From a virus (lineage: Duplodnaviria > Caudoviricetes): 64,000 nucleotides of DNA. The position numbers and the translations under genes are program-made. The DNA is taken from IMG/VR virus record IMGVR_UViG_3300028832_000100; one strand, 5' to 3'. Every line of letters begins with the position of its first letter. Within the stretch, counting starts at the first letter, position 1. Shown here one piece after another: positions 1,158 to 34,097 of the stretch. The notes beneath the pieces were generated by a model, which was given only the letters and a program-made list of their open reading frames with translations, was not told the DNA's origin and searched no databases.

Positions 1158-1213
1158 GTGAGGGGAACATCCCCATCAGTTGGTGGACCATGATCTTTCG
1201 ATCAGCCCATGTA

Positions 1214-3206: not shown

Positions 3207-6200
3207 TTATAATCTACTTGAATTGATAACCGAAACATTGCAGTTATTCATCTGTGCAATGGTGAATCTGTTAAACGGATTGTTGGAATCCCAGAATGAA
3301 TCTGCTGTCATTGGATCTTCTACTGCTGTCGCTTCATTAACTCTGTTTGTCCAATTGTAAGCAACTGCCGGCGAATATGGAGACACAAGCATTGTACTCT
3401 TTATAAAACCCTCAACACCGCTCATAATAGTGTTATTTTCGGTTTCGTCGCTCAATATCTGTGTATATCTTTCTACGATATTAACATTTCCTATGAGCAA
3501 TTCTTCTGCTCCTTGTGGGTTTGTTATAGTGACGGAGATTGTATTTCCCAATGGACTTCCTGCCGGATTATTTATGAAGGCATAATATGTTCCGGGACTG
3601 GTTATTGATGACGGATTTGAAATAGCTCCATACTGACTCCTTATCTCCGAGACGCCACTTATCGTAACTGTTTCTCCGTCCTGCTTAAATATGGTAAATA
3701 CAACTTCATTTCCCCAACTAAGAGAACTGTCTGTTCTACTAATAGATAGTGCAGTAGATGTCCCGTTTCCTTCTATTATGTAATAACCACTTGAGTCCGT
3801 ATTGGGCAAACCACTTGCTAACGTGTAAGAAATAGCATCAAGTTCCGCTTCAAAAGTACCATCTTCCTGCATTACTCTTACATCAATATTTTCTCCACCG
3901 GCTAATACAAGGTTTGCATTGAATTGAACAATACTGCCGGACGAAACATCTGCATTTGTATTACCATTAAAATAAAATGATTGACCCTGCAGAAGTTTTT
4001 GTGGATTTAGTGCGGTTGAGTTTATATTTAATCTTGACCAAACCTGGTAATTTGTTGTCCCCATAGAGGAATCAAAACTTGCAATTTCTATCGGTTGGTC
4101 ATCTATATCTTTTAACTCTAAATCTGCTATGGATTGTTCTGTGTTTTTAATATCGGAAGAAACAGTACCTTTAATATTGCACCCTTCTCCAAGAACTGTC
4201 ATATTCATTTCTTGAATGTACAAATCCATCTCTTTGTACTGCCAATATATATCCTCAATGTCCCCTGTGAGTATTGTTTCTGCGGTTATTTTTGAAGATA
4301 AGCCAGATGATATTGCTCCTGTGTAACTACTGGTCGGTGTTAAATGTCTTGTTAGCTTTGTACCACTTCCAAGAACAGCAATACCTTGTGAGAAGTCTTC
4401 GGATTTAGAATACAGAAAATATTCACCCTCTTCCAGAATAATATACTGGTCTGCCTCGGTGGTGATGGCTTCATTGTATTCTGGAAATAGTGTGTTTTCT
4501 GCATTATTTCTAAGCCAGTAGCAAGGCATCCTGTATTCTTTTACGCTCGGGTTCATTTGAAGATGTACTTCGTTTATTTTATTCAAATAAATAGCCCCGG
4601 TTGCTTCTAATCCCTTCCAGTTGTCACCAGATGTGTTTTCTAACAATCTATTAGATGAGCAAACTGTTCCCGGTGGTATGTCGTAGGTTTTTTCTTCACC
4701 GGAATCTGTGTCTGTCCATTTCAATGTAATTTGGATGTTGTTGCTTGTACCAACATTGCTTTGTATCTTGAAATATGTGTTTGGATTTATTCCATCAGAA
4801 GGTGCACCACTCATTTGATAGTATATCATGTACGAATATGTATATGTGACTATGTATTCTGGTCGTGAAACAAATACATACTCGTTCTTTTTTATATCAT
4901 AACCAGATGATACACTACCAGATGTGATCTCAACTTCTGTCTTGATTTTGCTAATATTGTCAAAAACTTTAATGTTTTGCTGACCGAACTTGTATACAAA
5001 TCTATCGTCAAATTGATACATCTGCACATTTCCATTAAGAATAAGGCTTTGAAGAATATGCTTATAGAACTTGCTGGCTTCATCAGTACCGTCACTGGTA
5101 TATTTTAGATCTGTTGCACTATCGAAAGAGCCGGATGTATCATTACCCCACATAATCTTTGCTGTATAGGTCGGCTCGTTCAGAACAACACTCTTAATTC
5201 TTGTATCAGCGTTATTTATAGTTTGAATGATATCGTCATAAGAGATTGGCTCACCAAAATTGACTTTTCTAGCATTATACTTTCTATATAGTGCTGTTTT
5301 TATATTGGTTTCAATCTCTCTTGCATCTTGGTTGGAAACCTTATAATAGGTAATTACTTTACCGTTTACATCGTAGAAGTTTTTAATGCAAAATGGGTAG
5401 TCGGTACTTCTTACGTTGTCAACATAATCATGTTGAAGTGATTTCAACTCCTCTATACCTTGCTCGATTACCTGATAGTTTTGATTTACGCTAAATGAAG
5501 CATCATAAGAAACCTTTTTACTGCCCCCATCGTATGGAGAAAGAATATACAGAGCAAGGTTAAATGCGTTTCTACCATCTTCATTTACAACGAGTTTCTT
5601 ATCAATAGAGTCTTGATCCATTGTAACAACATGATAAGAGTATTCTATGTCGTTTGTCCTGTCTGCTGCTACGGCATTTGAGGCAAGATATTTTCCGTTT
5701 TCTTGAAGATTATAAACAGCATTTTCATAATCTCTACAGGTAACAAGAGTATTAAATGTCCCTACCGTTTTCTTATAGTTTCTATAAGCGTCTTCCAGCA
5801 ATTCTGGATCTTCACCATCAACAGCGTCAAATGGGTTAAAGACAATTAGGTTTTCTGTCAAGTTCTGATCGGTTCCACTATCATCTGTTATTTCTACATT
5901 AGTGTAGAAACTATCAATGACATTGTTCTGAATGTTTCCACTTTCACCCATTGTAACGATATATTTTATTTTCAAGCCGGATTCAATAATATCGCTTATG
6001 TCTTCCGGGAATTGAATGTAGCAAGTTCCGGAGTTCGGAAGGACACCGAAGGAGTAGACTCTCTGCCCTGTTTGGTAACTCTCTATATTGGAAACCCTTT
6101 TCCAAGCATCCCATTGTAAATCTGAATCTTCTGTTTGGGCTTGGTTGGTATTTGCTACGAATATACCGTTCTCTGCAACCATTGTGTCTGGTATGTACAC

Positions 6201-6782
6201 TCTGAGATCATCGTCAAGATTGTTAAGAGAGATAATATCGCTGCCACCAATCACAAGGTTTTGAATAACACCCTGCAACGATGGGGAAGTATATACTTCA
6301 TTTTTGGTCATTATTACGGACGGATCTGTAAGAGTGTAAACATATTCCCCTGTTGAATCTGTGACCATTGTAAAACGTGGTATTTTAATTCCGTTTGAAA
6401 AGTTTTTCCCTGCTCCACCTATGGTAAGGTCTCCATTGTACTTATAGGAGATCTGTGTAGAAGCAGCTCGATACCACTTCATTTCGTATCCGAGGGAGTC
6501 ATAAATCTGTCTTGCATTTCCGACCTGTGATACTGAAAGTGGAAATGTTTCAAGAATATTCTTATCAATATTATAGTTCTCTTTGTCTGCAATAATGGCG
6601 TTTTCTTTCAAAAGGACAACACCGGGGTCAGACTCGTTAGAGATAGTAGGGTCCCACTTCGGAGAAATGGACTTTACAAGGTCTAATTCCTCGTTATAAA
6701 TGCTATTAAAATCTTTATTTGTGTAAGATAGTCCACTAGAAGGATTCGTGTATATTACATTTTTTACATTGCTTGATGGCAT
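3207..6782 (-). CDS. Baseplate wedge subunit (T4 gp6 / baseplate-J-like)
   Basis: YTNKDFNSI...ESDPGVVL N-terminus and TLVTCRDYE motif; 1191 aa. Confidence 0.75.
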   Translation of the reverse strand: MPSSNVKNVIYTNPSSGLSYTNKDFNSIYNEELDLVKSISPKWDPTISNESDPGVVLLKENAIIADKENYNIDKNILETFPLSVSQVGNARQIYDSLGYEMKWYRAASTQISYKYNGDLTIGGAGKNFSNGIKIPRFTMVTDSTGEYVYTLTDPSVIMTKNEVYTSPSLQGVIQNLVIGGSDIISLNNLDDDLRVYIPDTMVAENGIFVANTNQAQTEDSDLQWDAWKRVSNIESYQTGQRVYSFGVLPNSGTCYIQFPEDISDIIESGLKIKYIVTMGESGNIQNNVIDSFYTNVEITDDSGTDQNLTENLIVFNPFDAVDGEDPELLEDAYRNYKKTVGTFNTLVTCRDYENAVYNLQENGKYLASNAVAADRTNDIEYSYHVVTMDQDSIDKKLVVNEDGRNAFNLALYILSPYDGGSKKVSYDASFSVNQNYQVIEQGIEELKSLQHDYVDNVRSTDYPFCIKNFYDVNGKVITYYKVSNQDAREIETNIKTALYRKYNARKVNFGEPISYDDIIQTINNADTRIKSVVLNEPTYTAKIMWGNDTSGSFDSATDLKYTSDGTDEASKFYKHILQSLILNGNVQMYQFDDRFVYKFGQQNIKVFDNISKIKTEVEITSGSVSSGYDIKKNEYVFVSRPEYIVTYTYSYMIYYQMSGAPSDGINPNTYFKIQSNVGTSNNIQITLKWTDTDSGEEKTYDIPPGTVCSSNRLLENTSGDNWKGLEATGAIYLNKINEVHLQMNPSVKEYRMPCYWLRNNAENTLFPEYNEAITTEADQYIILEEGEYFLYSKSEDFSQGIAVLGSGTKLTRHLTPTSSYTGAISSGLSSKITAETILTGDIEDIYWQYKEMDLYIQEMNMTVLGEGCNIKGTVSSDIKNTEQSIADLELKDIDDQPIEIASFDSSMGTTNYQVWSRLNINSTALNPQKLLQGQSFYFNGNTNADVSSGSIVQFNANLVLAGGENIDVRVMQEDGTFEAELDAISYTLASGLPNTDSSGYYIIEGNGTSTALSISRTDSSLSWGNEVVFTIFKQDGETVTISGVSEIRSQYGAISNPSSITSPGTYYAFINNPAGSPLGNTISVTITNPQGAEELLIGNVNIVERYTQILSDETENNTIMSGVEGFIKSTMLVSPYSPAVAYNWTNRVNEATAVEDPMTADSFWDSNNPFNRFTIAQMNNCNVSVINSSRL

Positions 6783-21508: not shown

Positions 21509-22222
21509 TTAGTCTACTGGATATGGTAAAGACATATTGGTATCAAGGAACTCTCTCAATGCCGTAAGTTCTGTATTTCCTTCTTCCAACATTGTTTCCC
21601 CGTCTTGTGTCCATAAAGCATTGGATTGAGTAAATCTTGTTCTTATTCTTCCAAGAGCAATTTTACATCTTGCTAATGACATTCTATGAATAATATCAAT
21701 CCAGAAATCAGATGTAATCTGTGACACATCATCAAATCTCGGTATATATTCTATTGTTATCGCTTGCGGAAAATCATAAGAGCAATTTACATATAATTTT
21801 TCAGAAGGTTTATCATACCGATATGTCAAGTCTGTTGAAATTGTATTTCTTATCTGTAATGCTATGTTCCATGCAGCATAGTTCTGTGCAAATGTTTGTA
21901 TGCCATAAGTACCACCATTACCCGAAAGCATCTGCCATTGAGCAAGATACATGGGATCCATTGGTGTTCCTAACTCACCTTCTCCACCAACCATATATCC
22001 AACGGCACGATAAACGGCTGCAACGGAACTTATCTCATATTTTGAAACATCAATACAAGGACTATATGGGACAGTAACTATTGCTGTTGTATTTATATAT
22101 CTCTGTACTTCTCTTAATGAGGAAGATATCGCTAAGGCAAGCGCAGAGTCGTCAATCTCTAAGGTAAGAACACCACCGGATAACTCAAATTTTATTTCTT
22201 CCATGAGAGCAGACATATCCAT
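21509..22222 (-). CDS. Neck/head-tail adaptor (gp13-like)
   Basis: ALGRIRTRF...DGETMLEEG C-terminus; directly after the capsid gene. Confidence 0.7.
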   Translation of the reverse strand: MDMSALMEEIKFELSGGVLTLEIDDSALALAISSSLREVQRYINTTAIVTVPYSPCIDVSKYEISSVAAVYRAVGYMVGGEGELGTPMDPMYLAQWQMLSGNGGTYGIQTFAQNYAAWNIALQIRNTISTDLTYRYDKPSEKLYVNCSYDFPQAITIEYIPRFDDVSQITSDFWIDIIHRMSLARCKIALGRIRTRFTQSNALWTQDGETMLEEGNTELTALREFLDTNMSLPYPVD

Positions 22223-22359: not shown

Positions 22360-25300
22360 TCAGCCAGCAGTAGCAGTGTATACAGGACTTGCGTTAGTAC
22401 CATATACACGAGAAGCACCCTCAACCTTACCTGCAACAAGAAGCAGAGGATTGAGAACCTTCAGATCGTACATTGTGGACCCAATTGTATTTATTATAAG
22501 TCGCTACCTTATAACGGGAATCTTCTTCCCCTCTTACTTTCATAAGAGTTTAGACTATATCTTCATCCTTTTCAGGATGCACACCATTTCGGATTTGCTT
22601 AAATCCTACTCCCATATTTGGGATAGTCGTTGAACCTTCAGATCAAAGATCAGCTTGGCTGCTGATTGCCCATTGCATCTTTCATTTAGGTTTGCGCCTT
22701 GTGAAAATCCATTCTATTGTTTCTACTTTCGTAACCATTTAGGTTAGAATGGCTTTAGGGGTTTCCAGCAATTAAATGTGTTATTTTTACTACACATTAC
22801 TGTGTAGCAGACCTTTACGCTGACTTCTTATGCAGCGTATTCCAAGCCTTGAGTAGTTCCACCGTCGCTGTACTGCAACAGCTGAGTGGGAACAACTGGC
22901 ATATCGTTTATGTTTTATGTGGATCACTACACCACATATTGCTTATTAGCAACTCTATATTTCTATAGAGACCAGACTATATTATCATCTTTTCAGATGT
23001 GTAACCTTTCGGATTCGTTTGAACCCTACACCGCGCTACCGGTTAGTCGTTGAACCTTTTCCTATTCGGAACTTGGCTGCTGATTGCCCAATCCAAATAA
23101 TTTTCAAACATTCGCACTTATCCTTTCAGATTATGCTGTAGTTTATTTGGCTCTAAGGGTTTTCCAGCAATTAGTTACATTATCAATTGATTATTTCTAA
23201 TCAATGCCACTATAGATTGGATTGTTTTTAAGCAACCAATTCTAATGGAGCGTACACAGCTGCACTACTCATCATGTCCTCACCGTTAAGACCAAATGCA
23301 AACTTACCGGATGCAATGGAAGGAGATACAAAGATCTTGATTCCATTATAGGTCTGTTTTCTTTTCTATCAATCGTTACTTGATAGAGATAATTTCTTAT
23401 CCTCTTACTTTCATAAGAGCAGAGACTATATCTTCACCCAACGCATTGGGTGCAACCCATTTCGATACCACTTGATATCTACTCCAGATTTGGTCTGGAT
23501 AGTCGTTGAACCTTTTCCTATTCGGAACTTGGCTGCTGATTACCTAATCATAGCAACTTCTTAAAACTATCACAATTTGGCTTGTTTCATCCATTTGTTG
23601 TAGTGTACTACGCTCTAAAGGTTTTCCAGCAATTAGAGTTGTCTATTATTCTGCACATCTCTGTGCAGCCTGGCTATAAAGTTTAACCAGCAAGATATGG
23701 ACCGTTTACACGGGAGATTCCTTCAGCGGGTTTGAATCCACTAAGGAAGGAAATAACACGAAGAACATCAGGAGCGATCAGCATGTAGTTAGGACTGACT
23801 ATTGTGTTTACTGAAAATCGCTACTTTTCAGCACGATAATATACATGCTTGATATTATCGTCACATACTTTCATATGTGTACAGACTATATCTTCACCCT
23901 ATTTAATAGGGGCAACTCACTTCGATTTCGCTTGAAATCTACTCCATAAAGGATAGTCGTTGGGGCTGTAACTACTTGAGTTCCCTGCCTGCTGATTTCC
24001 CAATCCTCTAACTTTTCAAACCTTCATATCTTCATCGCTGAAATACTGTGGTATAGAGGCTATAAGGGGTTTCCAGCATATCGAGTTGTTTATTTTTACG
24101 CTACATCACTGTAACGAGAAGCTATAAAATTTAACTTCTGAGTTCTGTTGTAAATAATGACACGACCTGCTTCGATGATATCTGCAAATGACTCAAAGTG
24201 CTGAGCCATAGAAATACCAACAGGAACAGTGCGGTCAAAAGTAAGGGTGGCAAGTTCATCAACAGATGTTGCTTCCTCTGCAGTCTTCACAAGAAGATTG
24301 ACTACTTCAGTGTCAATTTCCAAATATGTTACGAATAAGTCAATTTCGCTTATTCTCTATAACTTATGTATTTGTTATAGTTCAGACTATATCATGTACC
24401 TATATTGATTTATCCTTTATAGGTACCCATGCACTTCCACCTCTTTGAGGTGTACTCTACTCATTTATTCATCTGAATATTTCTTTCAGATTATACTTTC
24501 GATAGTCGTTGAGCGTTATTTATTTAGATGATACTATGTACCATCCTTGATTTATATAAGCATCAATATTAAAATCTTGAATCATTCTGTATTTAGGAAA
24601 TATCACATCGTGTGACATTTTTCTTCTTCCTAAATGTGAAAGCCTATCAAGAAGTTTCTGATTTTCTGACTGGGATTTTCCAAACATTCCATTATTTTCA
24701 CCAGACGACAATGCACTGTGTAGCATCTTTAATTCATCTGACTGATGCCAACGATTTCCATAATTACTGTTTTTAGAACCAATTCTTTCGGTTCTAAACT
24801 TTTTCTTCGTTTCATCAGAATGTTTGCGACCTTTGAACATCGGTCCTCCCGGTCCACAATCTCCACCCTTACGTTTGTTGTATCCAACCAATGGGTTTCT
24901 TGAATCTAATTTATCAATCCAGAAGATTTCCTTCTGATTTAATTCATCTAAACTGTCTGCGGAATCTATCATCTCAACAGACAATCTTTCTTCAAGTGGT
25001 ATATTGTCTTGCAAGCATTTCTTTCTTATTCTTGAAATAAGAAGACCACTTCCAACGTACTTAATACCAACAAACTTGCTTGAGTGGTGTTTTCCAACGT
25101 AAATTTTTCCGTTAGATAGATCAGTTGTTTTATAAATATATCCAAACATTTTATACCTCCGAAGTACAAAACATAATAAAAGTGCGGTAATCTGAAATTT
25201 CGGAGATTTCAGAATTGGTAGCTACTCCCTTGTCCCGCACAATATATGATACAATTTTATATTGTGCTTTATATCAAGTTTTCAATAAATCTTCGCTGCT

Positions 25301-27355
25301 GATTGCCATGCAGATGACACTAATCTGCAAGGTTTTCCAGCAATTCACATGGTTTTCACTAATATATTGCTATATTAGGCTACAAAAAGTTTATAGTTCA
25401 GTTCTGCAACAGCACGTTCTGCCAGCTGCTCTCCAAGATCAAAACCATAATCCTGCTTTGCCTGCCATGCAGCAATGTTTGAATAGTACACGGCAATTCT
25501 ACGCGCTTTTGCAAGCAGAGGCATAGCCTTCATCTCAGCAGTGAGAATAGGAAGATCGTTCTGAGGAATGACAACATTATTATAGTTGTAATTGAATACA
25601 ACATTACCAGTGATTCCGCTAGTAAGAGTGATAGCAGGAGTGCCAGTAGAGTAAATCTGTTCAACACCGTTGTAAGCAACACCCTTGGTAGCAGTATTAC
25701 CATAAACGATAGTACCTGCTTCGGATGCGCCAGTAATGTTCTTCACAAAACGACCAGCGACACCTTCGAGATGTCCGTTGTTAGGATCAACTGCTTCGGT
25801 TACATAGTTAGTAACAACTGTAACAGCTGCTCCATCTGCATAACTGTAGATTTTACCGTTACCATCATCAAGGTAGTTAGTGGTGCCAACCTTGAAGGAA
25901 ACGGTGCCGGGGACTACAGGACCCCAGTTAAGAGCGATTGAGGTAGTAGAATCTGCAAAACTCTTGGATTCTTCAACCTTAGATGCTGTGAAATCGGTGT
26001 CAACCTTTCCACGAGCAAAAGGATTCTCAATCAGATCACCAACGCTTGTCTTACCTTTATTTGAGCCATATGAGTATTCAAGATAGTTTACCAATTGTGT
26101 TACGAATACTTCGCTTATAAAAGTATTCTCTGCATATTTCTATGCAGTTCGGACTATATTATCAGCCAAGATTGTTTTGTCCTCTCTTGGTTGCCAGCTC
26201 TTTCCATTCCACTTGGAATGTACTCTACTCACTTCTTCACAAGAATATTTCTTTCTTGCTATGCTTTCGATAGTCTCTGAACCTCCCACTATACAATGGT
26301 TTGGCTGCTGATTGTCCTTTCGGAGTTTCCAGCAATTTAACTGGTTTTTGTCATTCATGTTACCATGAAAGGGTTACGTCATGCTACATAACCACTCATG
26401 CTCGACATCGGGTAAGTAATTACCAAATCACATTTATCTTGCGTGTAAATCGTTTCCACTTACACTCTTATCATCACTGATAAGATGAGACTATATCATA
26501 GTCCAAACTTGATTTATCCTTATTTGGATTCCATGCACTTCGACTTCACTTGAAGCCTACTCTACTCATTTATTCTCTATTGTTTTTCTCAATAGATATA
26601 CTTTCGATAGTCGTTGAACCTTCCTGCCAAATTAGGCAGACTTGGTTGCTGATTGTCTTAATGGCTAATTTTTAAGACTTCCCAGCAATTCACATGGTTT
26701 TTTCTGCAAACATTACTATTTGCAGCCTCTGTTAAAAGGCAATAAGATTTGGTACGGTAATATTTACCAAATTTAGTGCAAATTTCTTAACATTTTTATT
26801 GCAATATGCACAATTATGCATATTTCTTGATATTACTATCAAGATTAGACTATATCATCATCCAATATTGCTTTTACCCTTTATTGGATGCCTCGCGCTT
26901 CGGAAACTTTTGCTCCTACTCTACTCATTTACTCATCATCATTTTTCTTGATAACTACATTTTCGATAGTCGTTAAACCTTCCGTTCAAAGAACGGCTTG
27001 GATTTTTGTTGTCCTACTGATTGCACTATTTCAATAGGAGTTTCAAAAAGTTCACGAGGTTTTCTACATAATATGAATTTAAGGGCTAACTTCTTAAATT
27101 GTTCTCATATCTGTAGGATCTCAATAAATATTACTATTTATTGCTCCTTTATATGGGAAAGAGTCCCATGTCGGAACGCTGGGTTCCAACGGAGTTCTCA
27201 AACTGCTCAGTGAGAAACTTGGAAGTGTTGTCAAGAAGTCTTGCAACAGCAATCTTCTTGGCTTCAGTAATGCGAGTACCGTTGTGTGCCTTCATGTGAA
27301 CACGGTCGGCAACAGCAAGACGGTTCTTGTACTGTTCAAATAGTTTGTTAGCCAT
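22360..27355 (-). CDS. Major capsid protein (T4 gp23-like), 527 aa, 9 exons: 27355-27160, 26790-26736, 26430-26388, 26091-25393, 24320-24134, 23798-23686, 23353-23245, 22904-22845, 22481-22360
   Basis: Spliced frame is 1584 nt with no internal stop and restores gp23-type motifs across junctions: PNLIAF|DLVITYPMSSMSGY|V, AELNY|EIDTEV, KF|SPNYMLIAP, GPYLAG|TYNG, AVYAPY|MP, QGW|STMY. Follows the prohead protease. Confidence 0.93.
22482..22844 (-). ncRNA. Group I intron 8 (363 nt)
   Basis: P1 AGGCU/GGUCU with a UACGCUG/CAGCGUA loop hairpin; all core motifs; terminal G. Confidence 0.88.
22905..23244 (-). ncRNA. Group I intron 7 (340 nt)
   Basis: P1 CCAU/GUGG with an extended P1 loop hairpin; all core motifs; terminal G. 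Confidence 0.88.
23354..23685 (-). ncRNA. Group I intron 6 (332 nt)
   Basis: P1 CUGGU/GCCAG; all core motifs; terminal G. Confidence 0.9.
23799..24133 (-). ncRNA. Group I intron 5 (335 nt)
   Basis: P1 GAAGU/GCUUC; AUGCUGGAAA, AAUCAGCAGG, CCAACGACUA, AAGAUAUAGUCU; terminal G. Confidence 0.9.
24321..25392 (-). mobile_element. Group I intron 4 (1072 nt) containing a GIY-YIG homing endonuclease
   Basis: P1 CUAU/GUAG; core motifs present, ORF lies between Q (AAUCAGCAGC) and R (CUCAACGACUA); terminal G. Confidence 0.92.
24520..25149 (-). CDS. GIY-YIG homing endonuclease with NUMOD3-like repeats
   Basis: GYIYKTT...KIYVGKH, E-x-FWI, GYN; MFKGRKHSDETK and NGMFGK repeats; SD GGAGGT. Confidence 0.9.
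   Translation of the reverse strand: MFGYIYKTTDLSNGKIYVGKHHSSKFVGIKYVGSGLLISRIRKKCLQDNIPLEERLSVEMIDSADSLDELNQKEIFWIDKLDSRNPLVGYNKRKGGDCGPGGPMFKGRKHSDETKKKFRTERIGSKNSNYGNRWHQSDELKMLHSALSSGENNGMFGKSQSENQKLLDRLSHLGRRKMSHDVIFPKYRMIQDFNIDAYINQGWYIVSSK
26092..26387 (-). ncRNA. Group I intron 3 (296 nt)
   Basis: P1 GGUUAU/GUAACC; AAUUGCUGGAAA, AAUCAGCAGCC, UUCAGAGACUA, AAUAUAGUCC; terminal G. Confidence 0.9.
26431..26735 (-). ncRNA. Group I intron 2 (305 nt)
   Basis: P1 GCCUU/GAGGC; AAUUGCUGGGAA, AAUCAGCAAC, UUCAACGACUA, GAUAUAGUCU; terminal G. Confidence 0.9.
26791..27159 (-). ncRNA. Group I intron 1 of capsid gene (369 nt)
   Basis: 5' exon CUCU pairs with GGAG (U.G at splice site); P3 CCUCGUG/CGCGAGG; R UUAACGACUA; S GAUAUAGUCU; terminal G. 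Confidence 0.88.
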
Positions 27356-27377: not shown

Positions 27378-28970
27378 TTATTGAATAAATTTTTGCACGA
27401 ATGACTCATCAATCATGTCATCAGAAGAAATATTATTTGCTTCTCTTTCAATCATGCTGTCATTCGATTCGGAAATTCTCATCCTCTTTTGAGTTAATGA
27501 GAAGGGCAACTTGCTAACATTCAATGCGTGTTGCTCTACACTTTCACAAATTCTATCAATATCATTGAAGGAATAATTTTGGGGTAACTGTCTCTTAATT
27601 TCAGAATCAGACACCCCTAAATGTAGTGCCTTCATACTGATGTACTTGTTTACGGCAGTCTTTGCTACACGCTTGTACTGTTCAACAAGTTGTGTTTGTT
27701 CGTTGATTTTTTTCTCGTACTTCTCTTGAAGTTGAGATAGGTTTTCTTGGTATTCTTTGTTCTTAATGGAAGAATTCTTTTTCATATCAGAAATACTCTC
27801 CACAAGGGACTTCTTCTCTCTTTCAAAAGATTCCTTCAAAGAAATATTCTCTTTCCTTGCTTCATTCAACCTGCAATGAAGTTCGTTTGAAGATTCTTTC
27901 TTTTCATCCAAACTTTCTTGAATACGCTTTGCGGAAGCTCTTTGCATGCGAATTTGACCTTCAAGATCACGAGAACTGTTTTCCAATTTTCTAATCTCTT
28001 GGTCTTTTTCTTGCAAATCTTCTGTAAGTTTCTGAACCTCTGCTTTTAACTTTGATTCAGATTTTTTGGAATCACTCAATGTAACTACTGCACTCTTGTA
28101 CCGACTAACTTCTTCTACAAGTTTGGTTTCTTTTGCATAGCAAACTGATAACTGCTCTTGGAGAGAAATTATCTGTTCCTTAAGTTTTTCGTTAGCACCC
28201 AATGCTTCCTGCAATTCCTTGACTGTTGTTGCCATGACATCATCACCTGCAACGACTTCTTCAGAATCGTTTTCTTTATTACTGTCTTCCTCTATATTAT
28301 CGACGTTTTCGGTGTCGTTAATATCAATATCCAATTCTTTTAGTTGCTCTTCCATAACCCTCTTATCATCAGCACTTGCATGTTCCAACGATTCTTTAAG
28401 AGCTTGTTTGAGTGACTTCTTATTTGATAAAGACTCTGTTACATATTTCAGTCTTGCTTCTTTCACTGCTGGAACAAGAACGGCATCCCAACACTCACAC
28501 TCAAAAGTAGATGGCTCAACAGATTCAGATCCGTCCATCTCCTCATAAGTATCTCCTGTCCCTCTGCTTGAAACACCGATGTGGCTTCCATAATCACAAA
28601 GAGTTTTCAAAATTCTTCCACAAGGAGTGTCAAGAATATCAAAAACACCATGAATTTTTCCATCACTACCCTTTTTAGGCATCTCTGCCATACAGATAGC
28701 AATCTTTTCCGGATCAACTTCGGTTCTTTCTGCTGGATGACCAAATTCACCTACAAAGACTTTTTCTCTGATTTTCTCTTCTGTAAGTGGATCACTGAAA
28801 AACTTTTCCCACAATTTCTCGCTATAAAAACGATTGTTTCTTGTGGGGTTTTTCATATCAGCAATAACACCTACAAGTCTACCTAAAATTCCTCTGCTAG
28901 CCTGTTCTTCGGCTGACAGTTTATTGTATTCCATTTCTTTTACTGCATTGTAACTTTCTAACATCTGCAA
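27378..28970 (-). CDS. Prohead protease (gp21-like) fused to a coiled-coil scaffold
   Basis: NNRFYS, GEFGHP, LDTPCGRIL, GVSSRGTG, WDAVLVPA, then about 300 aa of coiled coil. Confidence 0.9.
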   Translation of the reverse strand: MQMLESYNAVKEMEYNKLSAEEQASRGILGRLVGVIADMKNPTRNNRFYSEKLWEKFFSDPLTEEKIREKVFVGEFGHPAERTEVDPEKIAICMAEMPKKGSDGKIHGVFDILDTPCGRILKTLCDYGSHIGVSSRGTGDTYEEMDGSESVEPSTFECECWDAVLVPAVKEARLKYVTESLSNKKSLKQALKESLEHASADDKRVMEEQLKELDIDINDTENVDNIEEDSNKENDSEEVVAGDDVMATTVKELQEALGANEKLKEQIISLQEQLSVCYAKETKLVEEVSRYKSAVVTLSDSKKSESKLKAEVQKLTEDLQEKDQEIRKLENSSRDLEGQIRMQRASAKRIQESLDEKKESSNELHCRLNEARKENISLKESFEREKKSLVESISDMKKNSSIKNKEYQENLSQLQEKYEKKINEQTQLVEQYKRVAKTAVNKYISMKALHLGVSDSEIKRQLPQNYSFNDIDRICESVEQHALNVSKLPFSLTQKRMRISESNDSMIEREANNISSDDMIDESFVQKFIQ

Positions 28971-29089
28971 TACTCCTGTACCGTTTTTTAGTCGAACCGA
29001 CTATTTTAGAATTTTTTTGTCAGACAAAAATCTGAACAGTGTCTATATAATAATTTAGCAGAAAATTTTTTCGCAAATTCTTATATTTT

Positions 29090-29416
29090 TCTGAAATATG
29101 AACAAAATATGAATGAAATTTTCAAAATGTTAAAAAATCGCTTTAATAACTAGATACTATCTATATATACAATTATTTTTACTAGATATTATATAATATA
29201 TATTATAATATATTTATTATTTACTAGTATATGCGTACACAAGAAATTTGTGAACAAATTGTGAACAAATTATTAAAAATCTATGAATAGTGAACATTCT
29301 ATTACAAATTTGTGAATAAATTATTAACAGTCCGTTATGAACAGATTTCTAAATTGTGAACAAATTATGAATAATATATGAAAAATTTATGAATCATGAA
29401 CAAATTGTGAACAAAA
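29090..29416. repeat. Cluster of (T/A)TGAACA / TTGTGAACAAA direct repeats around an AT-rich core
   Basis: Roughly a dozen or more degenerate copies, often 10-11 bp apart (e.g. TTGTGAACAAATTGTGAACAAAT). Confidence 0.75.
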
Positions 29417-29947
29417 TTAAACTCTGTATATACTCTCGATTGCTTTTAGATCCGCTTTTATAAGGTTAAGCAATCGTACACAATTCGTAAGGTCATAGTT
29501 TTTGAAATAAAGACTTAACACCATACTGATCTCATCTGCTCTTGCATGTCTTAAAAACATTTGTCTGTTGGATGCCTTCTTACTGAAAAGAAGTATCTGT
29601 AAGAGCATTGAAGAAAGTGTTGTTAATATTTCTTCTGGTGATGAATCTTCCTTTACAATATTTCCATAAAGTTTTGATTTTTTACTGTTATAACTTTTTC
29701 TTATCTTTTTATAAAATTCAGTTACATCTAACTGTCTGTTGTCATTTATAAATTTCAGACAACTCAAATCAACATCTCTGCTAACAACGGCTCTTGACAG
29801 AACTTCTTTTGTGTCAATTCCTTTATCAGCAAGATCTTTAAGCAACAATAAACAATCTGACTTTGTAATCATATCTATATTTCTCCATTTCGCATTGCAA
29901 ACTTGGTTTTTCATTTTAATAACTACCACAGACAGCAAATTTGCCAC
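29417..29947 (-). CDS. Hypothetical protein (probable start MITKSD near 29872)
   Basis: ORF between portal and protease; SD GGAG before the internal ATG. Confidence 0.55.
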   Translation of the reverse strand: MANLLSVVVIKMKNQVCNAKWRNIDMITKSDCLLLLKDLADKGIDTKEVLSRAVVSRDVDLSCLKFINDNRQLDVTEFYKKIRKSYNSKKSKLYGNIVKEDSSPEEILTTLSSMLLQILLFSKKASNRQMFLRHARADEISMVLSLYFKNYDLTNCVRLLNLIKADLKAIESIYRV

Positions 29948-30010: not shown

Positions 30011-31990
30011 TCAGCCAAATTCAGGGCTGTTATTATTGGTGAAGTCAATACCTATTTCTTCTCCGCTTGGAAGAATGGTTTCTTCTGCTGAAACAGTAGG
30101 TTCTTCAGCCGTGCTTGCTTCTTGTGGCTCTGTTTCTTCCGGAGTCACACCACCACCTATTTCATCTGCAAGACTCATTGGAGCGGATTCTTCATTATCA
30201 AGACCAAGACCCTCTTCATCTCCAATTTCATCTTGAGGTGTTTCATTTTCTTGTTGTGGGTTTTCTTCTTCCTGCTTTTCTAATTTGTCTATCTGTTCTT
30301 GAATAAGCGAAATAACTTCATCATCCACCATTGCAGTAGAAAGAAGTGCTTTCACAATATTCAGTTTTATAGCAGGATCTTCAATATCACTAACAAGATC
30401 AACTGTATCTCTAATGACACCCAACCTACTTGACATATTTTCTCTTCTATCAAGTTCTTCTTGTGTAATAGGAGGCATCATTCTAATTTGGAACTTGTTG
30501 ATATAATTATCCATTTCTTTATCAAGAAGCATAAGATTTACCATGTCGGTTAATGCTTGAATCATTGCATTTTGCAAAGATTTAACAGTTTTTGCATATC
30601 TTGAAGAAAGAATGGTCAAAGATGCACCGCCATTAAATCCGGCACCATCTTCGGTAAATCCAAAATACTGTTTGAGAACCGACAGAGATCCAAAAAGTCT
30701 ATCTCTGAAATATTCAATGTCAATCAGATTTTTAGGATCATATTCACCACCAATATTTTGAATATTGATAGCACCAACATTGTTCTTTGTAGTCCAATAA
30801 ACATTATTGTCAATAGGACCTGCATTTGTATACTCTTGTAAATACTTTCCTGTGTTAAGAGCGGTTTTCTGCTCTAACATATTCTTCAAACGAATAAGGA
30901 GCGGTTGAGCCGTTTCTTTTGGCATCGATCCAACATCAACAGTAATCAGCTTGATTAGCTGTGACTTTGTAACACGGTTGAGCATAAGAGAGTTTTCAAG
31001 CAACGAAAGAGTTCTCCATGCAGGATAGGCATCGTAAAGAATTGATTTTCCTCGCTTTACAATATAACTTGCATTAGCTTCTGGATTGTCAGTATCTTCC
31101 AAGAAAATCTTTACTTCTTCAGGAACACGACTGCTATCATAATCAAGACAAGCATGAACAAAATCCGTTGCTTCATGTACTGTCACATCCGACTTCTTAA
31201 ACCCGTATCTCATTTGGTTTGATAAAACAGGGTTATCGTTCTTATAAACAGAGGTAGAAACATCTGCTTTAATAAAGCCACAAGTCTTACCAAAACGATC
31301 CAATTCAAACATTTCTGCCGGATTTGGAACAAGTTCTACATAGTGACTATAATGGTCTTCTTTTGAGTATGCTTTTATTCTTACATCCTCATTAAGATTT
31401 TTCTTTTTCTTTCTTTCTTCCTCTTTTTGAAGTTCTACAAAAGCATTGAAAGAATCTAATTCATCTTCTTTGTTTATGCTCTTGAATAGAGGATCTTCAT
31501 GGTCGGATTCTCTATAAAGTCGAAGATAAGCATCTCCATATTTACAAAGATTTATTATCCACTTTGTAACAAACTTATCTACATTGATTGTATCAAGCAA
31601 ATAGGAAACCATCTTTGCACAATTTGCATCAGACGATTCTGCCCACACAATTTTTCCTTGATCGTTCGGTTCTGTTGCATCTTCTGCATAAGTACGAACA
31701 ATGGAAGCAATAATTGGATCTTCGCACATTGTATCGAGCATTTGATACAGTTGATCTCGTCTTTGAGAAAGTTGGGTGAAAGATTGTAGAGCACCAGTAT
31801 CAAGCTTTCCACCCTCGTTAGCAATAATAATGTCATTGAAAAAATCACTGTCTAAATCTACACCAATATTTATTGGGTCAGTAGGTTCTGTTACAATCTT
31901 TTTCCCATAAATATTTTGATTTTCATTTTCAATATCATCTTGCTTATTTAGTTGTTTTTGTTCAAATTCAACATTTATGTTTGAGTCCAT
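30011..31990 (-). CDS. Portal protein (gp20-like)
   Basis: CKYGDAYL, YGKSIL-like RGKSIL, LLENSLMLNRV, VDVGSMP, DIEYFRDRL. Confidence 0.9.
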   Translation of the reverse strand: MDSNINVEFEQKQLNKQDDIENENQNIYGKKIVTEPTDPINIGVDLDSDFFNDIIIANEGGKLDTGALQSFTQLSQRRDQLYQMLDTMCEDPIIASIVRTYAEDATEPNDQGKIVWAESSDANCAKMVSYLLDTINVDKFVTKWIINLCKYGDAYLRLYRESDHEDPLFKSINKEDELDSFNAFVELQKEEERKKKKNLNEDVRIKAYSKEDHYSHYVELVPNPAEMFELDRFGKTCGFIKADVSTSVYKNDNPVLSNQMRYGFKKSDVTVHEATDFVHACLDYDSSRVPEEVKIFLEDTDNPEANASYIVKRGKSILYDAYPAWRTLSLLENSLMLNRVTKSQLIKLITVDVGSMPKETAQPLLIRLKNMLEQKTALNTGKYLQEYTNAGPIDNNVYWTTKNNVGAINIQNIGGEYDPKNLIDIEYFRDRLFGSLSVLKQYFGFTEDGAGFNGGASLTILSSRYAKTVKSLQNAMIQALTDMVNLMLLDKEMDNYINKFQIRMMPPITQEELDRRENMSSRLGVIRDTVDLVSDIEDPAIKLNIVKALLSTAMVDDEVISLIQEQIDKLEKQEEENPQQENETPQDEIGDEEGLGLDNEESAPMSLADEIGGGVTPEETEPQEASTAEEPTVSAEETILPSGEEIGIDFTNNNSPEFG

Positions 31991-32024: not shown

Positions 32025-34097
32025 TCACCAAACGAAAATTCCATCACTTCCGAATGTTGTTTGAACAGGTTGTGCAATACCCATTCCAAAATCAGTAAAA
32101 TTAGAATTATTATTATTCTTATTCCTATTACTGTCTTGTTTGAATTTACTCATTGGATCATTCAATCTTATAAGTTCTCTTTCAAAAGCAGCATTTATGT
32201 CTTCTTGGGTTAAAATTGATTTACTCTCACTTATTCCAATAGAAAGATCCATGTTCTCTCCATAGTTATAAGCAAATTCATCACCATTTTTAGAAGCATT
32301 CCACAATGCACCAACAACAGAGTCAATTGCGTCTTTGCTCCCCTTGGTACCGGAATCTTGATGATTTATGTGACCGTCTGACTGCCTTTCAAGACCTAAT
32401 ACTTCTTCCGTCAGAAAGGGGCAATCATCATAAACTTCAAGTCTTCTTTCATATAATGTAGATTTGAAATAAGCATAAGGCAAGCATTGCTTTGTTTCAG
32501 AATCCAATCGGTCAACAGATATTATACTGGAATTGAAATTATCTGCCAACAACTGTTGCTGTAACTGTGCACTCTGGTATGTGTCGCTTGAAACACCAAC
32601 AACATTAAATCCTTGCTCTCTTAGCCATCTTACAAAAGATCTGTTTTTATCAAAACTTATTTCATACCCTTTTGGAGCAGCAACGCTTACAGTAAAAGCA
32701 ACTCTAAAAAACAATTCTCTTGAAGTTTCTTCTCCGTCTACCTTGGGCTTTTTACCCGTTATATACACACCACCAATACCTGTTTTGTCACCAGATTTTG
32801 ACATATCAAGGTGAATAAATAATGGTAGTGATTTCATCTTGTCAGTAACTTTACTTAAATCAAAGAAATCATAGTATTGAACTAAATCATCTTTTGCATT
32901 ACCAACTGTTATAATTTCTTTTGTAAATGGATTTTTATAAGAATTATTCTTAATCTCATTCCATCTAACACCAGAAATAAATTTCAATGTGGATGCCGTT
33001 GCAATACCGGCAATATCCATCAATGCACCATCTATATTTTCAAAGAAGTTATCCCAATACCCTATTGGCACAGGTAAGATAGAATATCCCCTCGCTCTGT
33101 ATTCATTAATTAATTCATCACTACATTTTCTTGGTAGCACTTCATTAGCCAAAAATTTATTTCCGATTGCAACATAGAATTTTTCTTTGCTGTCTTTTCT
33201 ACTATCTACAATCCATTGTGGCTCATCTACAATCAGTGTCTTGCTATTTTCATTCTTTTTCTTTGTTTCTATATAATCTTCCAAAAAAGACTGCTCATTA
33301 TTTTTTGAAGAAACAATAATATTCAATGTTGGTAAATATGTTTCATCTCCGCGCTGTCTCATATATCTTGATTTCATACGAGCGTCAATTTGTGAAACAA
33401 GTTGCTTATATTTTTTCTTCAATTTTTCAGTGTCATTGGTTAATCCCCAGTTCACTTCATCACTTAGATTTCCGAATAGGGCACGACCAATGACTTGATT
33501 ATTACTTGAAGCAACAATCAATTCAATATGTTTATCTGGTACAAACATTAGATTGGTTGATCCTGTCATCTTGCCATGACTCATAAACCACTCGCTTGAC
33601 AGAATCATTTGATTCATCTTATCAAGAGCAACGCCTTTAGCATTCTCTATCGTGATATTCATAAGAGAAATACTTATTTTATCAATCGGTTGCATCCCAT
33701 AATACAAATATGGGTCTTTTAAGCAAAGCAATCTATAAAGCAAATATAATAAACAAACTACTCCAATTAATGTTTTACCTATACCGATAGCACCAGTGAG
33801 TATTAAAGTGTTATATGCCGTTGTTAGATTGTCCGGAAATATTTCTTTTAACTTTTCTTCCCAGTAAGGAAACAATGTAAATCTTCCTTCCGGGTCATAT
33901 AAGCCATTTCCTAAATATTTTTTATCATGTAAGAAAGTAACAACATCAACAGGTATTTCTTCAAAATCAGAATATTTCAAATCATTCATCAATGAAGAAT
34001 TTCCAGTTTCGCTTAATTGCTTTAATATTTCTAATGCGACTTTTTGTTCTTCCTCTGATAAATTTTTTAGTTCTTGTAAATCATTTGTCATAGGCAA
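32025..34097 (-). CDS. terL: Terminase large subunit
   Basis: Walker A TGAIGIGKT, Walker B LSDEVN, nuclease HLDMSKSGD, SKDAID. Confidence 0.92.
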   Translation of the reverse strand: MPMTNDLQELKNLSEEEQKVALEILKQLSETGNSSLMNDLKYSDFEEIPVDVVTFLHDKKYLGNGLYDPEGRFTLFPYWEEKLKEIFPDNLTTAYNTLILTGAIGIGKTLIGVVCLLYLLYRLLCLKDPYLYYGMQPIDKISISLMNITIENAKGVALDKMNQMILSSEWFMSHGKMTGSTNLMFVPDKHIELIVASSNNQVIGRALFGNLSDEVNWGLTNDTEKLKKKYKQLVSQIDARMKSRYMRQRGDETYLPTLNIIVSSKNNEQSFLEDYIETKKKNENSKTLIVDEPQWIVDSRKDSKEKFYVAIGNKFLANEVLPRKCSDELINEYRARGYSILPVPIGYWDNFFENIDGALMDIAGIATASTLKFISGVRWNEIKNNSYKNPFTKEIITVGNAKDDLVQYYDFFDLSKVTDKMKSLPLFIHLDMSKSGDKTGIGGVYITGKKPKVDGEETSRELFFRVAFTVSVAAPKGYEISFDKNRSFVRWLREQGFNVVGVSSDTYQSAQLQQQLLADNFNSSIISVDRLDSETKQCLPYAYFKSTLYERRLEVYDDCPFLTEEVLGLERQSDGHINHQDSGTKGSKDAIDSVVGALWNASKNGDEFAYNYGENMDLSIGISESKSILTQEDINAAFERELIRLNDPMSKFKQDSNRNKNNNNSNFTDFGMGIAQPVQTTFGSDGIFVW

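Follow-up and report, generated by a model that had tools for sequence, protein, structure and literature searches.

The gene described here encodes the major capsid protein of an uncultured virus (Duplodnaviria; Caudoviricetes; IMG/VR virus record IMGVR_UViG_3300028832_000100) from a bovine gut metagenome, of which a stretch of 64,000 nucleotides (nt), called the window in the following, was analysed. It runs on the minus strand from position 27355 down to 22360 and is divided into nine exons by eight group I introns, which take up 3412 of the 4996 nt of the locus (68%), while the joined exons form a frame of 1584 nt with 527 codons plus stop and no internal stops. The locus is very probably a working gp23-type capsid gene that has been colonised by eight selfish mobile group I introns and depends on their removal. 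This arrangement had been proposed in an initial annotation made from the sequence letters, and all of its exon and intron lengths were reproduced exactly when the sequence was re-cut at the boundaries given there. The accompanying claim that standard annotation misses the gene proved correct as well, as the protein collection contains no other part of it than an open reading frame (ORF) of 239 amino acids (aa) from exon 4, which has no Pfam match.

The presence of group I introns was assessed with the Rfam covariance model RF00028 (gathering score 50 bits), which matches seven of the eight segments over the full model (positions 1-253) with scores of 55.7-87.5 bits and E values of 2e-11 to 6e-21, all on the minus strand. 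The remaining segment, intron 4, contains an ORF and is recognised in two halves: once this ORF is taken out, the 5' and the 3' part both align to the other introns, P7 strands included, and a profile built from the introns (nhmmer) recovers the two halves with E values of 1e-11 and 5e-44. Neither the Rfam scan nor the intron-built profile revealed further introns in the window. As initially described, an exon U precedes the 5' splice site and a G terminates the intron in all eight cases, and a P1 helix may be drawn for each intron, consisting of 4-6 base pairs with the exon and 1-3 base pairs within the intron and placing a G of the internal guide opposite the splice-site U. Every intron shows an in-frame stop 3-38 nt past the 5' splice site, which is a usual feature of phage introns. 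These properties suggest that the eight introns undergo guanosine-dependent self-splicing.

The predicted joined protein is a T4 gp23-type major capsid protein of an uncultured cattle-gut myophage. Over its whole length it can be aligned to the proteins annotated as major capsid proteins in Bacillus phage vB_BceM-HSE3 (31% identity, E 2e-67) and Listeria phage LIS04. Seven intact full-length metagenomic homologues pass through all eight junctions ungapped, and the alignment shows no unexplained gap or insertion between the junctions either, which leaves no sign of additional mini-introns devoid of a core. Affiliation with the Gp23 family was judged by Pfam PF07068 (gathering cut-off 24.4 bits). 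Exon 4 of the window yields no Pfam match on its own; 71.9 bits are obtained for the long exon of a relative (P0001), whose identity to the window protein in this region is about 82%, and 89.1 bits for an intact homologue (P0004). The solved chains of T4 gp23 are found at E values of 3.5e-9 to 1.6e-8 by a profile of twelve intact family members (A1), whereas P0001 used alone against the solved structures gave only a Gp23 entry at an E value of 0.65.

A view on the closest relative found, an IMG/VR contig (L003, the same as L006) with a capsid 85% identical in protein and 77% in DNA sequence, provides the intron-less alleles that the initial annotation had asked for: its capsid gene is uninterrupted at all eight intron sites of the window phage. 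It carries two introns of its own at coding nt 213 and 273, each with an endonuclease ORF, and the two phages have no intron position in common. The ratio of nonsynonymous to synonymous substitutions (dN/dS) between them is 0.09 overall and 0.06-0.18 in seven exons, at a dS of about 1.3, which is near saturation; exons 1 and 2 are saturated and hence have no separate values. Purifying selection of this degree is strong evidence that the predicted joined frame is what selection sees.

Several observations weigh against a functional, spliced capsid gene. Intron 4 reaches only 19 bits with RF00028, matches from P3 to P6 only and stays below the threshold as one unit, so that the eight hits initially expected amount to seven above the gathering score and a partial one; this partial match is due to the inserted ORF of 209 aa. 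The evidence for family and fold was taken from the 85%-identical relative and from homologues of 47-66% identity rather than from the joined protein. The structure model of one intact homologue, which was based on a 12-sequence alignment, is poor (mean predicted local distance difference test score, pLDDT, 58.9). Foldseek searches with this low-confidence model return phage capsids, headed by those of P1, Staphylococcus phage S6 and T4 gp23/gp24 with template modelling (TM) scores of 0.32-0.46, and related HK97-fold shell proteins, a few encapsulin and virus-like-particle shells following at far lower rank; these matches were counted as weak support only. Finally, splicing is a prediction that draws on the architecture of the introns and on the purifying selection acting on the joined exons.

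The repeated intron cores raise the question whether the arrangement could be an assembly artefact, caused by mis-joined cores or mixed strains, or else a decaying pseudogene with a working capsid gene elsewhere, but either is extremely improbable. The contigs of the likely source run cover the locus piece by piece, without any difference from it and at an even depth of 14-21. Introns 2, 6 and 7 do contain contig ends within their repeated cores, as mis-joining would have it, and one further break lies inside exon 4, but each exon is bordered by intron sequence within a single contig. Samples of a second study contain the same multi-intron stretches, with contigs running through introns 5-7 (23115-24314, 29 differences) and introns 6-8 (22552-23677) at about 95-98% identity. 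Because of these independent contigs and of the exon-intron boundaries inside single contigs, a chimera or one-off artefact appears very unlikely. The order of the exons is collinear and in frame with the homologues, and the low dN/dS over the exons together with the intact ribozyme cores speaks against decay. An intact capsid gene elsewhere, which the initial annotation had named as a reason to abandon its proposal, is lacking in the 64 kb of the window, to which the search was confined and which belong to a contig of about 146 kb; moreover, the locus occupies the canonical place between portal, protease and neck genes. Among the joints listed for four sequencing runs, none corresponds to a precise intron-less joint in DNA, and most of those listed have short sides and resemble repeats or other organisms.

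As judged from alignment and pairwise identities, the eight introns belong to two lineages. Introns 1-4 group with both introns of L003 and share a long insert after P7 (mutual identity 52-66%), whereas introns 5-8 show a different layout (56-64%); parts of the cores are similar to introns from, among others, staphylococcal phages and further phages of Firmicutes. The junctions fall in conserved blocks of the protein, with a mean local conservation of 0.864 versus 0.671 for the protein as a whole; only 28 of 20,000 random sets of eight positions came out as high. Intron 4 is the only one with an ORF, the product of which begins with a GYIY...KIYVG motif, matches NUMOD3 above the Pfam cut-off (23.4 bits) and phrog_314 ("homing endonuclease", 1.2e-22), and shows only a weak match to SegE_GIY-YIG of Pfam (E 0.13). 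Around its insertion site at coding nt 993, the intron-less allele of L003 is identical at 43 of 50 nt, and would therefore be a plausible target of the intron-4 enzyme.

The capsid family comprises at least 2177 proteins at an E value of 1e-5 or better, and PF07068 is found in all 120 members listed. Most of the capsid genes sampled are intact: among the best 80 IMG/VR loci, a ranking which favours intact genes, nine contain one or two capsid introns. Fragment-sized capsid ORFs are common in metagenomes. Two introns were seen in the capsid gene of contig L091, at least two in L093, five in L090, at least five in L092, and at least four within the first ~335 codons on the partial contig L095. 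Eight is the largest complete number seen in this small sample of intron-bearing loci. The resolved insertion sites of the family lie at nt 123, 194, 196, 210, 212, 213, 251, 273, 294, 993, 1180, 1293, 1402 and 1462 (window numbering), with approximate further sites near 150 and 900-920 and ten sites within nt 123-294 alone; this list is incomplete and in part approximate, as automatic junction finding fails for exons shorter than 117 nt or with recoded TAG. Two sites of the window phage hold orthologous introns in relatives with capsids only about half identical, namely site 993 in L091, where the intron is 65-77% and the endonuclease over its full length 55% identical, and site 1293 in L090, where the intron is 72% identical.

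Some additional features of these relatives are recorded here. The two introns of L003 (3490-4659 and 4720-5979) are separated by 60 nt of exon and are 81% identical in their ribozyme parts; the endonuclease ORFs inside them (289 and 311 aa) show no relationship except for a NUMOD3-like stretch. At the corresponding coding nt 213 and 273, located in exons 2 and 3, the window phage has the codons CTA and CCG versus the synonymous CTT and CCT in L003, with A or G standing where a group I intron would require T ahead of its 5' splice site. The contigs L091 and L092 translate only with TAG as a glutamine codon. The endonuclease ORF in a capsid intron of L091 (8842-9477, plus strand) contains five in-frame TAG codons, yet represents the full-length orthologue of the intron-4 ORF, and the mobile-intron gene therefore uses the recoded code of its host phage. 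In L090 (5836-6519), capsid residues ~449-487 are encoded twice, on either side of an intron core (6080-6400), which resembles a duplicated stretch of the 3' exon beside an intron near site 1402. Intron-like cores of the same family occur 6-7 kb upstream of the intact capsid genes in L045 (925-1206), L046 (2141-2422) and L080 (1959-2229), so other genes in such phages can carry these introns.

According to the proposed mechanism, each intron would fold into a ribozyme core whose internal guide pairs with the last exon bases and thereby places U opposite G at the 5' splice site; the intron would then be excised by attack of guanosine at this position and ligation of the exons after the terminal G. 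Ribosomes running into an unspliced intron would be halted by the early in-frame stop, and the capsid protein of 527 aa would be made only from mRNA freed of all eight introns. The introns probably moved as selfish elements from one co-infecting relative to another, entering the best-conserved shared sequence by homing and recombination, and many of them may have lost their endonuclease genes after insertion. Their position in conserved blocks of what is taken to be the best-conserved gene of the phage would be accounted for in this way, because homing and recombination during co-infection work on the sequence that relatives share best.

Alternatively, the intron load may be adaptive, either by delaying or gating capsid synthesis through splicing, or by protecting the gene through immunity against rival homing endonucleases, through broken protospacers, or through attack of the intron-4 endonuclease on the capsid genes of intron-less relatives. 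The confinement of all eight introns of the 64 kb to one gene is in line with such a benefit, which nevertheless seems unlikely, as clustering at conserved sites is already predicted by selfish homing alone. The timer or gate on capsid synthesis suggested initially finds no support in the sequence, and relatives with none, one, two or five introns, together with the intact state of most sampled capsid genes, indicate that the load is optional and dispensable. Shielding from spacer-guided nucleases, another initial suggestion, would be small, because a junction is crossed by only ~16% of the 32-nt coding windows, and 3.4 kb of additional, partly conserved target DNA come with the introns. Concerning rival homing endonucleases, an inserted intron destroys its own homing site, and an occupied site has thereby lost the target. 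This immunity is standard for homing at each site, and is not needed to explain eight introns. In its competitive form, the argument would be that the eight-intron allele is kept because it pays, being immune at eight conserved sites to endonucleases circulating in the phage family and encoding a putative GIY-YIG enzyme that would cut the intron-less capsid genes of co-infecting relatives; neighbouring introns without an ORF might be carried along when the cut is repaired from the copy rich in introns. The intron-4 endonuclease is indeed intact and conserved over its full length in a distant relative, with a near-matching site in L003, and an intron endonuclease of phage PhiPA3 is reported to aid competition between co-infecting phages (PMC11620839). 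The seven introns without an endonuclease do not fit this view well, and it is considered improbable compared with colonisation of a functional capsid gene by selfish introns. If it were true, the capsid gene would be a weapon between phages, beyond a dumping ground for selfish elements.

Accumulation of introns in a conserved gene is familiar from fungal mitochondrial cox1, in which a dozen or more mobile group I introns can gather at conserved sites, present in some relatives and absent from others; it differs in being an organellar gene with many LAGLIDADG maturase introns and without the problem of bacterial-type coupled transcription and translation. Phages in which several group I introns have colonised core genes are already known, and the present gene is an extreme case of this kind, though not the most extreme one and not the first. 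The closest parallel is the crAss-like (zeta group) cMAG OLRF01000054, another gut phage with a major capsid gene broken by several group I introns, in this case into five fragments; according to the same paper, introns are typically found in core genes, capsid included (Yutin et al., bioRxiv 10.1101/2020.07.20.212944). It has four intervening segments, three of them with intron domains, versus eight introns here, and is a crAss-like podophage of a lineage unrelated to the gp23-type myophage. Within the same capsid family, as indicated by its match to exon 4, the cultured Bacillus phage SP-15 (KT624200.1) has an intron-borne endonuclease: its capsid gene SP15_032 is annotated as a two-piece join around the endonuclease SP15_033 (L094:2980-5497, equivalent to KT624200.1 25479-27996), with a group I core at L094 3782-3993 that is related to introns 5-8. 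Unlike the window gene, it contains a single intron at another site (~nt 920, window numbering) with an endonuclease of the Phage_endo_I type.

Further genes with more than one group I intron come from large phages of Firmicutes, namely orf142 of Staphylococcus phage Twort with three introns (Landthaler and Shub, 1999) and nrdE of Brochothrix phage A9 with three introns plus an intein (PMC3653736). Both are different genes and have three introns rather than eight, and splicing was shown experimentally in Twort, while it is deduced from the sequence here. For Cluster J mycobacteriophages, one spliced intron is reported in the capsid gene (PMC3706429). The Jug jumbo gut phages contain a mean of 18.5 group I introns per genome, located in essential genes, and about half of them are confirmed by metatranscriptome reads (bioRxiv 10.1101/2025.08.10.669567); these introns are spread over many genes in 2-3 pieces each, whereas all eight found in the window are in one gene. 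The initial benchmark that three introns in one gene are remarkable is outdated in view of the five-fragment crAss-like capsid gene and the Jug phages. Among the papers searched, which did not include subscription-only ones, the largest number of intervening sequences published for a single phage gene was four, half of the eight introns present here.

The genetic surroundings of the capsid gene are those of a T4-type head module. The order of portal, S77 protease-scaffold, capsid and neck genes (Table 1) is the same in relatives, and the portal, protease-scaffold, sheath and tube genes are uninterrupted ORFs, in accordance with the initial description of these genes as intron-free. The terminase, initially included among them, was not identified; an ORF of 690 aa (32025-34097) has neither a Pfam nor a PHROG match. 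No close cultured relative was recovered by megablast against 50,697 phage records, the sole match being 41 nt in a short stretch without annotation in Escherichia phages. Two features outside the capsid gene may be added: an Rfam DUF3800-XI RNA motif at window positions 1162-1209 on the minus strand (57.4 bits versus a gathering score of 37.8), and a very AT-rich, ORF-poor gap at 29000-29400, located between the protease-scaffold gene and an ORF at 29417-29947, with a GC content of 0.19-0.20 versus ~0.38 around it.

Table 1. Features of the capsid locus and neighbouring head genes (positions in the window).
Feature	Position	Strand	Properties
Neck / head-tail adaptor gene, downstream	21509..22222	-	phrog_211; gp13-like syntenic gene in relatives
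Exon 9	22360..22481	-	122 nt, stop included
Intron 8, group I	22482..22844	-	363 nt, long P1 loop; Rfam 87.5 bits
Exon 8	22845..22904	-	60 nt
Intron 7, group I	22905..23244	-	340 nt, long P1 loop; Rfam 78.9 bits
Exon 7	23245..23353	-	109 nt
Intron 6, group I	23354..23685	-	332 nt; Rfam 85.8 bits; same-site intron in L090, 72% identical
Exon 6	23686..23798	-	113 nt
Intron 5, group I	23799..24133	-	335 nt; Rfam 55.7 bits; P1 U.G
Exon 5	24134..24320	-	187 nt
Intron 4, group I	24321..25392	-	1072 nt, endonuclease ORF inside; partial Rfam match; halves align to other introns
Intron-4 ORF, putative GIY-YIG-type homing endonuclease with NUMOD3	24520..25149	-	209 aa; NUMOD3, phrog_314, motif, L091 orthologue
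Exon 4	25393..26091	-	699 nt; holds variable insertion domain
Intron 3, group I	26092..26387	-	296 nt; Rfam 74.7 bits; P1 U.G
Exon 3	26388..26430	-	43 nt
Intron 2, group I	26431..26735	-	305 nt; Rfam 83.0 bits; P1 U.G
Exon 2	26736..26790	-	55 nt
Intron 1, group I	26791..27159	-	369 nt, without ORF; Rfam 63.3 bits; P1 U.G
Exon 1	27160..27355	-	196 nt, ATG at 27355
Prohead protease (S77) fused to scaffold-like coiled coil, upstream	27378..28970	-	Pfam PF03420, 48 bits
T4-type portal, uninterrupted	30011..31990	-	Pfam PF07230, 125.6 bits

If splicing proceeds as predicted, a bacterial virus can cope with eight obligatory splicing events in the late gene that it expresses most strongly, despite the coupling of transcription and translation. 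At an efficiency of 90% per step, ~43% of the transcripts would be usable, so splicing would have to be very efficient or its cost would be real. With eight introns of two lineages in the window, at least 14 resolved sites and close relatives whose intron sets are entirely different, this capsid family offers a compact natural system for studying the gain, loss and homing of introns. Moreover, gene callers that miss a capsid gene of this kind affect the detection and classification of viruses by capsid markers.

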